Assembly (NCBI GenBank): GCA_016213235.1
Contig: JACRBE010000012.1
Coordinates: 1-8,145, forward strand
Length of the DNA stretch: 8,145 bases
Direction: 5' to 3'
From: Chlamydiales bacterium
GTDB lineage: Bacteria; Chlamydiota; Chlamydiia; Chlamydiales; JACRBE01
Positions 3,001 through 8,145 of this stretch are shown here, piece by piece. How positions within the stretch are numbered: position 1 is the first letter of the stretch; every line of letters starts with the position of its first letter. The position numbers were made by a program.

Positions 3001-6000
3001 TTCAGATGCATATTGACGATAGAAATAAGAAAGATGTAACATCACCACATCCAGTGGTTCCCAATATTTGATGCTCGATTTCTCTAATACTTCCTTATAT
3101 TTTTTATCTACCCATAAAGAGGCCTGATTAATACTGTTTTTCGATGCTATATAAGGTAAATTGTACCGTTTTAGATTTTCTTCGGATTCATTTGTTAATA
3201 AAAAACCTTCGAGCACTTTTCCTTTTACAAGAGGCACTTCATTTAAGTAGACCGTATAGTCATTAGGCTCTAGTATCTTGGAATCTGTTCGTACATGCAC
3301 TCCGGGAAATTTAACTCCTAAATCTTGATAGAGAGCATATCTTGTTTTAGGTATCATATCTTCTATAAATTTTGTACTAGATCTGTCTTTTTTTACCAGA
3401 TCAGATAAATTTTTCCCCATCTCCAAAATTACAGGAAGAGTTAGTGCATAACTATCCGATCCACCTCTTACTACCGTATGACCTTCAATATCGGTTTCGA
3501 TCATGGCTGCGCCTTCCGCACCCTCCAATAGAGTCGCCTTTTTCGCTTTTTTCAAGCCAACAATGCCGATGCTTAAAATACCTGCTCCCAGAAACAAAAA
3601 CATGAGGAAGGGAAACCCGGGTACAATTCCCATTGCCAGCACGACAATACCGGCTAGCAGAATCCCTTTATGTTGGGAAAATATCTGTTGGGTAATATCT
3701 TTCCCTAAGTTTGCATCTTTCTTTTCACTCGATACACGAGTGGTCACGATACCTGCTGTTAAAGAAATTAAAAGAGAAGGGATTTGAGAAACAAGGCCTC
3801 CCCCGATAGACAATAAGGTATATATCTGCGCTGCTTTAAAAGCGCTCATATTGTGGAGCGTCATACCAATAATTAATCCACCAATGATATTAATGATTGC
3901 AATGACGATACCTGCGATAACATCCCCTTTTACGAATTTCATCGCACCGTCCATCGCACCATATAATTGGCTCTCTTTAGTAAGAGCTAAACGAAGGTCT
4001 CTTGCTTGGTTCGCATCAATGATACCGCTACGCATATCGGCATCAATACTCATTTGTTTACCAGGCATCGCATCAAGAGTAAATCTCGCTGCTACTTCTG
4101 CAACCCTCTCGGCACCTTTTGTTACAACGATGAATTGTACGATGGTAATAATCAAGAAGATAACACCACCTACGATAAAACTGCCTCCAACAACGAAGTT
4201 ACCGAAGGCAAAAATGATTTCCCCGGCATTTGCATTAAGAAGAATTTGTCTTGTAGCAGAAATTTCAATACCAAGACGAAAGAGTGTGGTAATAAGCAAA
4301 ATAGACGGAAACGCGGACAAATGCACCGCTTTTTGAATATAGAGTGCCACCATGATAAGCGAAATAGAGACTGTCAAGTTAACTGCAATTAAAGCATCAA
4401 TCACGGGAGGAGGAACAGGTATGATGATCATCGAAATGATAGTGATGACGAAAAATGCTAAGACAATATCGGAAGAGCGAGAGAGAAATCCTAAGACATT
4501 TGAATTTCCAAGCTTAGAAAGTAGTCCAGAGCTTTTCATTTAAAGAGCTCCACGTTGTATTCTTTTTCTTCGAGTTTTTTTAACCATTTCAAAATTTCCG
4601 CAACAGCTTCATAAGTTTCTTCCGGAATAAAATTGCTAATACTACCTAGTTCATATAATTGGTGTGCTAATGGGATATTTCTCATAATTGGGATATTATT
4701 GTCTAAACCTATTTCAATAATTTTCTTTGCCATTTCCCCTTTTCCCATTGTAGCTATCTTGGGAGCCGGATCTTCTTCCGCATTATATTCAAGAGCAACT
4801 GCGATATGTTCTGGATTAGTAACGATAGCTTTTGCTCTTCTTGCAGCTCCTGCGCCTTCTTGATATGCGATTTCTTGGGCCCTTTGTTTACGTTTGCTTT
4901 TAATATGAGGATCCCCTTCTGTATCTTTATATTCTTGTTTTACCTCAAATTTTTCCATCATCATTTCTTTGGCAAAGGTTCGCTTTTGGAAAGCTAAGTC
5001 AAAGACAGCAATCGCAATAAAGAAAATACCCACTCGGAGAATCACTTTCATTAAAAAAGAGCTAAATACAAGCATGGCTCCAATAACTGGTAGATTAATC
5101 GTGCCAATGATTTCTCCAATACTGTCATAAACAACAGAGTAAATTAAGATTAAGGCTCCGGTAATCTTGAAAATAGATTTTAACAGCTCAATAAATGTTT
5201 TTAATTTAAACATGTTTTTTATGTTGGTTACCGGATTTAATTTTTTGATATCCGGTTTCATCGCTTCCATGGAAAATATTGGTCCAATAATCAAAAAATT
5301 CACCAGCACTCCAACACCAGTAACGATAATCATAATCGGCAAGGAGAGAGTTAGTATTAATTCCATGCATTGTGATAAATAAGCGCCCGGTTGACTGGCA
5401 ATTTGATCGGTCTCTGGTATTTTTCTAAATAAAGAGACCATATAAGCAGTCAATGAACTATAGATAGTTTTAGCAGAAATAAACGTGGCAGCTAAAGAAA
5501 CAATAAAAGTAAAAGCTGCTGGAAAATCTTTAGATTTAGCAACTTGTCCTTTTTTTCTTGCATCACGCAACTTCTTCGGGGTCGCTTTTTCGCTTTTTTC
5601 TGCCATAACAGGTGATTCTAGGATTTAAGAATAAAATCACAGAGTATCGTAGACAAATCTTCGACGCAAGAAAATAGATGTTATTTATTATGGTAAAATA
5701 AAATTACATCTCCATCTTGTACAATATAATCTTTTCCTTCCGATCTTGCCTTACCAGCCTCTTTTGCAGCAGCTCTTGTTTTATATTTGGTATAATCTTC
5801 ATAAGATATGACCTCGGCCCGGATGAACCCTTTTTGTATATCACTATGGATTTTACCTGCAGCTTCAGGAGCGGGGAGACCTTTATGGATGGTCCAGGCT
5901 CTTGTTTCGATCTCACCTGTTGTTAAAAAGGTAATGAGACCCAGCGTATAAAAAGAGGATCGTATCAGCCTTGTAAGTCCCGGCTCTTGTAGTCCCACAC

Positions 6001-8145
6001 TTTGCAAAAATTGAAGCCGCTCTTCATCAGATAATGCAGAGAGCTCTTCCTCAAATTTTGCACAAATAGGAATGACTTGGGCTTTTTCCTTCTGCGCATG
6101 TTCTCGTACCCGTTTTACATACTCATTTTCCATAAGAGGAATGTCTTCTTCCGCAACATTTGTTAAGTAAATAACAGGTTTTTGCGTAATGAAATTATAT
6201 GGTTTGATGTGCTCTTGTTCTTCTAGAGTTAAAGAAATAGATCGTACAGGCTGATTTTGATTCAAGTGATCAGAGACTTTTTTCATGGTGTCGAGTACCG
6301 GTTTAAACTCTTTACTTGATCTGGCCTGCTTTTCCAGTTTTGCCATTGAATTCTCAATCATCTGCAGGTCAGCAAGTATCAGCTCTAAATTGATCACTTC
6401 GATATCAGAGATGGGGTCTATTTTCCCTTCCACGTGGATGATATTATCATCGGCAAAGCAGCGAACAACATGAACAATTAGATCGGTTTCTCTAATATTA
6501 GATAAAAACTTATTACCAAGCCCCTCTCCTTTAGAAGCCCCTTTGACAAGTCCTGCTATATCCACAAATGTTACCGGAGCATAAACGATCTTGTGGCTAC
6601 CGGATAATTTTGATAATTCCCTGAGTCTTGGATCATCCAACTCTACAATACCAACATTTGGATCTATGGTACAAAAGGGGAAGTTGGAAGCGGGTATCTG
6701 ATTTCTGGTTAATGCATTGAACAGAGTCGATTTGCCAACATTAGGAAGACCTACGATTCCACAAGAGAGTCCAGACATAATAAAAATCCTTTATTTTTTG
6801 AATAATAATAACATGATTAATTGTTTTTTTCCCTATGTGATTTTTTGATTTTCTTGCCTTTACTTAATTCTGCTTCTATTTCTTCAATGGTTGGTAGTTT
6901 TCCTTTAAGTTCTTTGGGTAGTTTTTCCATAAAATTCACTGTATAACTTGAAACTCCAATAGGACTTTTGAGATTGCTAAGAGCATATTCAGCGGTGATT
7001 TTATTCTTATCCTTACATAAGATGATGCCAATGGTTGGATTATCTTCCGGTTGTTTGAGTAAGCGGTCCACAGCTGTCAGATAAAAACTGACCTGACCAA
7101 CATCAGTTGCTTTGAATGGACCCGCTTTCAGTTCAATCACGATGAAGCATTTTAACTTGAAATGGTAAAATAAAAGATCTATATATGAATCTTCACCACC
7201 AACTTCAAGATGGTATTGTCTTGCAACAAAAGCAAAACCCTGTCCTAATTCCAATAGAAATTTTTGAAGATGATCGATTAATCCCTGTTCGATTTCTTGT
7301 TCATGAGCTTCGGTAGATAATGTAAGAAAATCCAAACAATAAGGATCTTTTAAGGATTCTACAGCCAGGTCAGAATGAGGTTCTGGTAATGTTAAAGCAA
7401 AGTTATTAACGGCCTTTCCTTTGCGCTTATGTAATGCAGATTCAATCCACATGACTAATGTATTTCTGGACCAGCCATTTTTGATTGCTTGTTCAGCATA
7501 CCATAATCGTTGATCATTGTCCTTTAACTTTGTAATCAAAACAATATTATGTCCCCATGGAATACGAAAAATAGGTAAAAAATTCAATTGTCCAACAGCT
7601 TGTTGGACAATTTCATAAGCTAGATAAAAAGATCTCATATAGAATATGTTCGATCTTGAGAATCCTGCTATCCCTGGGAAAGCTTTTTGTAGATCGATGC
7701 CGATGCTATCAACAGTCTTGGAACCCCATTTTTCTTTCCGATGTCGTTCAATAATAGTTTTGCCAATATCCCAATATAACTTGATAAGCTCCTCATTTAC
7801 GGTCAGGGTAGCTTTGAGCTGAGCATTCCTAATTTTTTCTTTCAGTTCACTCAAAAGTTCACTGTAGCCATCCAGTATTATGGGATTGACTTTAGCCTTG
7901 ACTAAAGAAGTTTTCTGCTTTTTTGTCATGAGCTATCCTAATCTTTGCATTGGACCATCTGGTTTTACAATATTGACGTTTAGATGAATAGTGTAAAAGG
8001 GGAAATTGGAAGCGGGTATCTGATTTCTGGTTAATGCATTGAACAGAGTCGATTTGCCAACATTAGGAAGACTTACAATCCCACAAGAGAGTCCAGACAT
8101 AATAAATCCTTTATTTTTTGGATCATGATAGCAATTAAATGCTTA

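Follow-up and report, generated by a model that had tools for sequence, protein, structure and literature searches.

Accessory genes bracketed by copies of gene ends in a Chlamydiales genome, probable insertion scars of a known kind

Elements with an integrase can replace the end of a protein-coding gene, as phage 21/e14 do in icd and SXT does in prfC. Insertion with long target duplication was reportedly first described by Nobusato et al. in 2000. In the survey of Furuta, Abe and Kobayashi (2010; PMC2853133), which used restriction and modification genes as its screening criterion, such an insert is shorter than 20 kb, carries no mobility gene and lies between direct repeats of more than 30 bp, which vary in length and are unique in the genome, and the empty site holds a single repeat copy. 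The repeats often span a start or stop and keep the gene whole, as was already noted there, and a lone nuclease, mcrA, is among the examples. In E. coli conjugation, single crossovers of circles led to target duplications of 109-950 bp (excerpt of PMC3240628), and in Vibrio T6SS arrays displaced gene pieces are left behind (PMC5361080).

We analysed a Chlamydiales genome from a window of 8,145 nt, which is the whole contig C49, and compiled 13 repeat pairs around accessory genes genome-wide. The inserts are like insertions with long target duplication, with repeats of 39-376 bp, lengths below 20 kb and no mobility gene in 12 of 13, so the anatomy of what had been proposed as a new route of gene capture is already published (PMC2853133). 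They are likely this known kind of scar, and ordinary cellular recombination with DNA of relatives is a more likely cause than a new mobile element. Unlike the set of Furuta et al., the cargo consists of candidate defence, toxin-antitoxin, kinase and RHS genes instead of restriction-modification genes, the host belongs to Chlamydiota, ten gene-end cases occur in 1.47 Mb, and the copies are 79-93% alike with an excess of silent differences. The inserts also resemble Campbell integration and homology-facilitated illegitimate recombination in having one homology arm and a partial target duplication (as described in the excerpts of PMC3240628 and PMC5361080), but in contrast to those laboratory events and to effector-immunity arrays they occur naturally, as single-gene inserts in housekeeping loci unrelated to one another, and are known here from sequence alone. 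With integrase elements, such as those in icd and prfC and the pipolins in ychF (excerpt of PMC11551731), they share an intact gene at one end, a displaced fragment at the other and diverged copies; however, they have no integrase, no common core and many unrelated targets. Our literature search, mainly of open-access main texts without supplements, returned no chlamydial report of such inserts, no toxin-antitoxin report of this form and no report of a palindrome in YhcG. What this genome adds is the mostly silent nature of the differences and a fused joint between an EamA start and an rlu end. Ten gene-end cases in a small genome allow a statistical look at the origin of the duplicate, in many cases apparently another lineage.

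In the window, yhcG, which may encode an anti-phage nuclease, is flanked by a 5' piece of ychF and by full ychF, as the first-pass annotation had described with repeats of 85% identity; we obtained 84.9% over 199 nt (Table 1). The identical core is longer than expected (longest-run permutation, P = 0.0004), and the changes at conserved residues of the ychF fragment (G10S, C36Y, D39H, P40L and G43N) all lie outside it. The cargo protein matches PF17761 and PF06250, and its final codons run into repeat copy A. Its closest relatives show 84% identity (a Rhabdochlamydiaceae MAG) and 91% over 140 aa (other Chlamydiae). The left joint is placed by similarity to locus L234, a similarity that begins at 7947, and the upstream stretch known from homologues is absent from the leader region. 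A promoter scan gave no excess (7 sites vs 7.8 in shuffles).

Table 1. Features of the yhcG insert and its flanks in the window.
Feature	Position	Strand	Remarks
Intact ychF	5681..6778	-	365 aa; 83% identity with ychF of relative G001
Repeat copy A	6628..6826	-	about 48 nt upstream and first 50 codons of intact ychF
Identical core of both repeat copies, 67 bp	6684..6750	-	twin at 8006-8072
Cargo yhcG, DUF1016 PD-(D/E)XK nuclease	6817..7929	-	370 aa; PADLOC candidate PDC-S02
Perfect palindrome, in frame, 12-bp arms, within variable segment of yhcG	7586..7612	.	
yhcG-derived leader with ribosome-binding-like AGGA	7930..7949	-	left joint at about 7950
Decayed ychF 5' fragment, 55 codons	7933..8100	-	
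Repeat copy B	7950..8144	-	runs on into native upstream DNA of contig C55

The end of the window shares 120 identical bases with contig C55, an overlap that places truB and a 125-aa ORF upstream of the ychF fragment; in the closest relative, G001, truB adjoins ychF. We considered this ORF as a cargo remnant outside the repeats (duplication followed by loss) and rejected it, for it resembles a protein of contig C54 and not yhcG. Logan contigs of run X1, which is possibly the source sample and hence not independent biology, show the identical structure with zero differences (5248-6713 at depth 7.15 and 6684-8034 at depth 7.52) and end at the 67-bp core. They contain no skip joint and no excess of depth, and would not reveal a crossover within the core. 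In runs X2 and X3 almost none of the words occur, and these runs give no cover of the organism.

All seven repeat pairs for which the first-pass annotation gave coordinates are present in the genome. Its statement that the blocks lie at the ends of housekeeping genes stands for 10 of the 13 pairs, which overlap the start (ychF, dapL, EamA) or the stop (rlu, sufE, acyl-CoA ligase with sat, NCS2 permease, argS, preP, GNAT) of a protein gene, and fails for a Gp49/HTH insert (intergenic, partly matched at C26), a HigBA-type island at the edge of tRNA-Asn and an intergenic aldo-keto reductase. "Housekeeping" is also a loose label for the NCS2 permease (no match in the examined part of G001) and GNAT (36%). 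Twelve inserts measure 0.76-4.5 kb and the dapL island 17.7 kb. The cargo includes PDC-S02, PDC-S27, SoFic, AbiE and PDC-S13; among the cargo matches there is no restriction-modification pair, the YhcG nuclease standing alone, and no Inc-like case was identified among the compiled sites. Three weak candidates (C23 2728/8203, C32 125268/127238 and C34 13399/19912) rest on AT-rich sequence of low complexity and were discarded; C32 120041/122626 lies inside the tRNA-Asn island and was not counted separately. Repeat-bracketed cargo exceeds chance: a flank score of at least 20 was reached by 0 of 480 core genes of this genome and G001, and in other Chlamydiota flanking repeats were found at 9 of 78 cargo loci vs 0 of 524 controls.

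Because the repeats lack a common motif and the inserts a recombinase, we do not regard the repeats as att sites of one enzyme. The scan, which took in 131 of 170 ORFs of the examined regions (those omitted being mostly short ORFs and outlying neighbours), gave no recombinase family in 12 of 13 inserts, as had been claimed, and an IS481-like remnant in the dapL island. Genome-wide, in a search that did not include PF07508, one tyrosine recombinase passes the cut-off, a Xer-like one on C51, and resolvase-family matches are confined to an IS607-like pair, which lies on C32 and in none of the inserts. The "att-like" character proposed for the repeats was not upheld: no word is common to the 13 repeats beyond chance (7-10-mers, P 0.73-1.0), and each repeat is almost unique in the genome. 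It is very improbable that one recombinase acting in trans, XerC-like or YhcG itself, shuttles cassettes between such gene ends. The Xer-like protein would be a candidate, and yhcG with tight repeats recurs across phyla and holds an in-frame palindrome; against this, repeat lengths vary widely, the palindrome marks only yhcG (1 of 12 inserts), repeats flank just 2 of the 43 extra segments that lie between syntenic genes, and no convincing dif-like site was found: a dif consensus, which may differ from the chlamydial one, is matched near repeats only at up to 6 mismatches and never at 3 or fewer. A trans-serving recombinase, as suggested at first, is also unsupported by the relatives of the cargo, none of which lies beside the same flank gene (0 of 109 yhcG, 0 of 29 ATPase and 0 of 29 Fic loci; 0 of 167 in all).

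Eroded integrative islands, in which an integrase element supplied the replacement gene end at each site and then lost everything except one to four genes by deletion, are an improbable source of the set. Pipolins with a serine recombinase are reported to use ychF as a target (excerpt of PMC11551731), the tRNA island that contains a Protochlamydia yhcG (L235) also has an integrase-like ORF, the present genome has a 74-aa integrase remnant on C25 besides the island at the tRNA-Asn edge, and selection on replacement ends would likewise give an excess of silent differences. But ten different protein-gene targets would require many integrases, and none is left in any insert; one C34 repeat covers the ends of two convergent genes and a C23 repeat the fused joint, and in 10 of 12 inserts no more than 50 bp separate a cargo stop from a repeat. 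Only two inserts are plausible cases of erosion, the tRNA-Asn island and, less surely, the 17.7-kb one at dapL.

The uninterrupted site that relatives were said to show was found in G001 at four places, truB-ychF, rnc-dapL, ligase-sat and argS with the next conserved gene, where the flanking genes are adjacent (at 60% median protein identity no base-level match is possible), and not at rlu, sufE and preP, where G001 has other genes. Its DNA is also too diverged to polarise the ychF copies. A ychF 5' piece in G015 was rejected as a cassette, being a contig-end overlap. The cargo appears to be mobile, with relatives in other families at 84% (yhcG), 78% (Fic) and 74% (ATPase) identity, vs the 60% median to the same-genus relative. 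In a metagenome scan with YchF for close strains the best matches reached 67% identity, and the data examined contain no circle, excised form, donor or strain with an empty site.

The differences between repeat copies bear on the origin of the duplicate. The 11 coding repeat segments (417 codons) hold 78 silent and 54 replacement differences, a silent share of 0.59, whereas simulated self-duplication with neutral decay gives 0.39-0.42, and 0 of 250 runs reached 0.59 under each of three mutation spectra. The excess persists when rlu is left out (P up to 0.004), and likewise when sufE and GNAT are (P up to 0.008). It is present in the 3' copies (0.61 vs 0.38-0.42 expected) and not significant in the three 5' copies including ychF (P 0.12-0.21). 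Stop codons number 0 vs 2.8-3.8 expected, by itself a borderline result (P 0.02-0.08). The excess indicates that the two copies usually differ in ancestry, in agreement with the idea that a replacement end is brought in; that the host gene stays whole was likewise borne out. The silent excess could also have arisen if the intact gene exchanged alleles afterwards.

At C23 the order is rlu, ATPase, an EamA start fused to an rlu end, kinase and EamA; the rlu copy has 64 open codons with mostly silent changes. The fused joint is the one formed when a unit of rlu end, cargo and EamA start closes, and together with the silent excess it points to entry, by a single crossover, of DNA that a related strain carried at this locus. 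The sufE site, in the order sufE, X1, sufE end, X2, with the two cargos X1 and X2 paralogous to each other, fits such an entry.

We consider it about an even chance that the repeats are homology arms rather than integrase sites. On this reading, accessory DNA linked to part of a neighbouring gene would have come from a related chlamydial strain and entered by one RecA-type crossover. Entry would be as a circle, or via one homologous and one illegitimate joint, and would leave the cargo between two non-identical copies of the gene piece. The cargo genes may move between chlamydial families and first be joined illegitimately beside host DNA; after the single crossover, an insert would survive only where the repeat spans a gene boundary, and the preference for gene ends is thereby explained as a survival filter. 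The idle copy would then decay, recombination between copies would refresh the core, and addictive or defensive cargo would resist loop-out until the repeats diverge. RecA, RadA and ComEC were found, and DprA was not in this 81% complete genome. If this reading is true, obligate intracellular chlamydiae acquire defence genes from relatives through nothing more than homologous recombination, and many single-gene inserts overlooked by integrase-based island finders can be mapped through their repeats. A rather doubtful extension is a recombinase-free capture cycle in environmental chlamydiae. Looping-out between the flanking repeats would release defence and toxin-antitoxin genes as circles, each with one gene end; after transfer to a related strain, RecA would insert such a circle at the same locus, and different cargos would pile up at one site (rlu/EamA, sufE). 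If true, this would support from sequence data the steps of release and reinfection, a hypothesis for which Furuta et al. had no evidence.

Entry from a relative is set against a possible, if somewhat unlikely, self-duplication of the target, in which a break or a stalled fork is mended with foreign DNA, 40-370 bp of the recipient's own sequence come to lie on either side of it, and the two copies diverge later through allele exchange and gene conversion. The silent excess in 3' copies speaks against it, and alone it does not yield the fused EamA/rlu joint with two different cargos; the ychF and dapL copies are compatible with neutral decay, and double-strand breakage was suggested by Furuta et al. 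(PMC2853133). Other genomes also lend it support. In G003 (L358) yhcG is bracketed by a repeat 100% identical over 91 bp, and eight repeat pairs from other genomes have no silent excess (26 silent-only vs 34 changed codons), which fits self-duplication or a near-identical donor and counts against the homology-arm reading. Decay-like changes between copies are seen at L393, L369 and L242. The pattern is not special to this genome and is present in other Chlamydiota as well as in other phyla, where near-bare yhcG ORFs occur with repeats of 32-60 bp.

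Self-comparison of the genome recovered all seven repeat pairs quoted from the first-pass annotation (7 of 7), and 13 pairs were compiled in total, 39-376 bp long with 79-93% identity. The proposal that the inserts lie at gene ends stood for 10 of these 13, in which the repeats overlap the start or stop of a protein gene, but not for the rest, one being at a tRNA-Asn edge and two intergenic. The cargo comprises defence-type genes (YhcG, PDC-S02; an ATPase, PDC-S27; SoFic; AbiEi/ii; Bro-N, PDC-S13), toxin-antitoxin-like pairs (Gp49/HTH and HigBA-type), an AAA_33 protein, a broken RhuM, a kinase-like gene, an aldo-keto reductase and one unknown gene; the largest insert, a 17.7-kb island, carries an RHS protein together with an IS481-like remnant. 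These inserts are a real, well-mapped set and behave as in insertion with long target duplication, reportedly first described by Nobusato in 2000. In the accessible portion of Furuta et al. (2010, PMC2853133), such insertions are defined by a size below 20 kb, repeats above 30 bp and no mobile element; they occur in many, mostly naturally competent species, their repeats often span a start or stop, a lone mcrA is among the cases, and an amplify-release-reinfect cycle is hypothesised without evidence of release. Unlike those, the cargo here is non-R-M, and no chlamydial report of such insertions was found in the literature searched.

The window is the entire contig C49 of the 1.47-Mb, 81% complete genome.

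Features of the ychF-yhcG locus and its surroundings in the window
Feature	Positions	Strand	Remark
Type III secretion block	1-5606	minus	conserved chlamydial, ordinary; sctU, sctV, copN, CesT-family chaperone, malQ-like glucanotransferase
Intact ychF	5681-6778	minus	
Direct repeat, one copy	6628-6826		84.9% identity between copies
yhcG cargo	6817-7929	minus	
Palindrome in yhcG	7586-7612		perfect, in frame
ychF 5' fragment	7933-8100	minus	55 codons
Direct repeat, other copy	7950-8144		

The two ychF copies share 67 identical bases mid-repeat with far more diverged flanks on both sides, a run improbable under even divergence (P = 0.0004). The fragment's damaging changes (G10S, C36Y, D39H, P40L, G43N), at residues constant in most of the 12 relatives shown, all fall outside this core, from which we infer that the core was refreshed by recombination once decay had begun. 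The cargo is a nearly bare ORF: similarity to the closest full-length homologue sets in 18 bases upstream of the start codon, and the final codons extend into the ychF repeat. The end of C49 overlaps contig C55 by 120 identical bases and thus places truB and a 125-aa ORF upstream of the fragment; among 29 loci of relatives, truB adjoins ychF in four (G001, G003, G037, G023), and yhcG is present in none of the 29. This hydrophobic ORF (L045 6912-7289; C55 18912-19289), between truB and the fragment and outside the repeat, resembles a 253-aa protein on contig C54 and does not occur in the portion of G001 that was compared. Contigs of sequencing run X1, which may be the source sample, carry the same arrangement without a skip joint, and their depth is even (7.15 and 7.52).

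G001 is the sole same-genus genome (1.73 Mb of ~1.9 Mb compared; median protein identity 60%). The statement that relatives show the uninterrupted site applies to ychF, dapL, ligase-sat and argS, which are empty in G001, but not to rlu, sufE and preP, where other genes lie. Repeats flank 2 of 43 extra segments between genes adjacent in G001, a design that misses ychF and argS and may include G001 losses; flanking repeats mark a minority of the extra DNA. In G001 (C15 31132-33663, L051), ychF is separated from sctU by two additional genes, of 692 and 133 aa, that no repeats flank, and therefore inserts were taken on both sides of ychF in the genus. Self-comparison of G001 yielded 18 repeat rows; most are tandem paralogues, and about five are weak cases resembling cassettes, at 72-82%. 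A second yhcG in our genome (C32 26910-30269; L048, L035) has a GNAT 3' piece upstream; in locus L242 GNAT is whole, and the gene preceding it (90% protein identity) sits downstream of our second yhcG, a permuted order.

Only one tyrosine recombinase exceeds the Pfam cut-off, Xer-like (C51 27737-28519), versus two Xer-like genes in G001, which probably reflects incompleteness. It lies outside the inserts, as does an IS607-like pair (C32 17103-19140, L052; MerR-resolvase, then a 480-aa TnpB/Cas12f-like gene). Contig C25 has an integrase remnant of 74 aa, likewise outside the inserts, and no recombinase was found among the ORFs scanned inside them, apart from the IS481-like remnant of the 17.7-kb island. 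The 13 repeats share no 7-10-mers beyond chance (P 0.73-1.0), and none has a third genomic copy worth the name. With no recombinase inside and no common motif, the description of the cassettes as att-like is not supported, and a dedicated system serving them in trans seems very improbable. Integrase elements do replace protein-gene ends, such as phage 21 in icd and SXT in prfC. In the accessible text of PMC11551731, ychF is named as a pipolin target. Erosion of integrase islands is an unlikely source, fitting best the tRNA-Asn and dapL islands. The former, at the tRNA-Asn 3' edge (C32 120014-124732, L037), has three related boundary sequences, a HigBA-type pair and a split DUF3800 gene without integrase, and looks like stacked classical tRNA islands.

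The best mechanism, to which we give about an even chance, is entry of related strains' DNA by homology-anchored single crossover. RecA, RadA and ComEC are present, and DprA was not found in the 81% complete genome. As far as the accessible text of each paper goes, circles that entered by single crossover in E. coli gave target duplications of 109-950 bp (PMC3240628), and Vibrio immunity arrays are attributed to homology-facilitated illegitimate recombination (PMC5361080). If the recipient's own sequence were duplicated and one copy decayed, silent changes would make up ~40% of differences. In 11 coding segments, which have 417 codons once gapped ones are excluded, 78 of 132 differences (0.59) are silent. 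Three mutation spectra were simulated 250 times each, and no run attained this share; stop codons are absent from the copies, against ~3 expected. The excess is carried by 3' copies (0.61) and persists without rlu, or without sufE and GNAT; in 5' copies, including ychF, it is not significant (P 0.12-0.21). Two results count against a foreign copy: eight repeat pairs of other genomes show 26 silent-only versus 34 changed codons (one pair identical), and a cargo homologue stands beside the same flank gene at 0 of 167 loci. The silent share would rise as well if self-duplication were followed by allele exchange at the intact gene, a reading that we hold as a tentative second choice.

On contig C23 the order is rlu, ATPase, an EamA/rlu fusion, kinase, EamA. 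The fused joint consists of the first 28 coding bases of EamA and the last 200 of rlu, and matches what closure or head-to-tail joining of a unit "rlu end, cargo, EamA start" would produce; the incoming DNA would therefore have held the genes on either side of its cargo, and its inferred source is the same locus of a relative with different cargo. The sufE site (sufE, X1, sufE end, X2, with X1 and X2 paralogous) is readable as the same kind of entry, and plain tandem duplication is possible. Tandem paralogue arrays are also present (C42 8282-11151, C27 25306-27747, C3/C43, C18, C56 19761-23769), and because the first C42 unit starts inside the end of the upstream gene, they may arise by the same process as the cassettes.

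Among 249 scored of 250 Chlamydiota genomes (our genome excluded), 81 gave a match to yhcG, 69 to the ATPase and 51 to Fic. From 87 best cargo loci, 78 had sufficient flank, and 9 of these have flanking direct repeats with a score of at least 20 (yhcG 2/26, ATPase 2/27, Fic 5/25), at nine different sites, compared with none of 44 ychF and rlu control loci and none of 480 core genes; one of the nine, L411, whose 103-bp repeats are identical and close to a contig start, may reflect the assembly or a repeat element. Beyond the phylum, some repeat lies within 4 kb at 20 of the 71 yhcG loci that had sufficient flank, a count without a control set that includes tRNA att and multi-copy repeats. Eleven non-chlamydial yhcG loci were inspected: two are tRNA islands and six, from Smithella, a deltaproteobacterium, Bacteroidota, Planctomycetales and Endozoicomonas, have 32-60 bp repeats near the ORF, four of which duplicate the neighbour's 3' end.

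No paper on the YhcG palindrome was found in the literature searched. In 41 of 93 yhcG homologues the best stem measures 9 bp or more, directly ahead of the W.H motif in 29 of the 41, while in ychF controls the longest is 8 bp (0 of 29 reach 9 bp). The stem letters differ between lineages.
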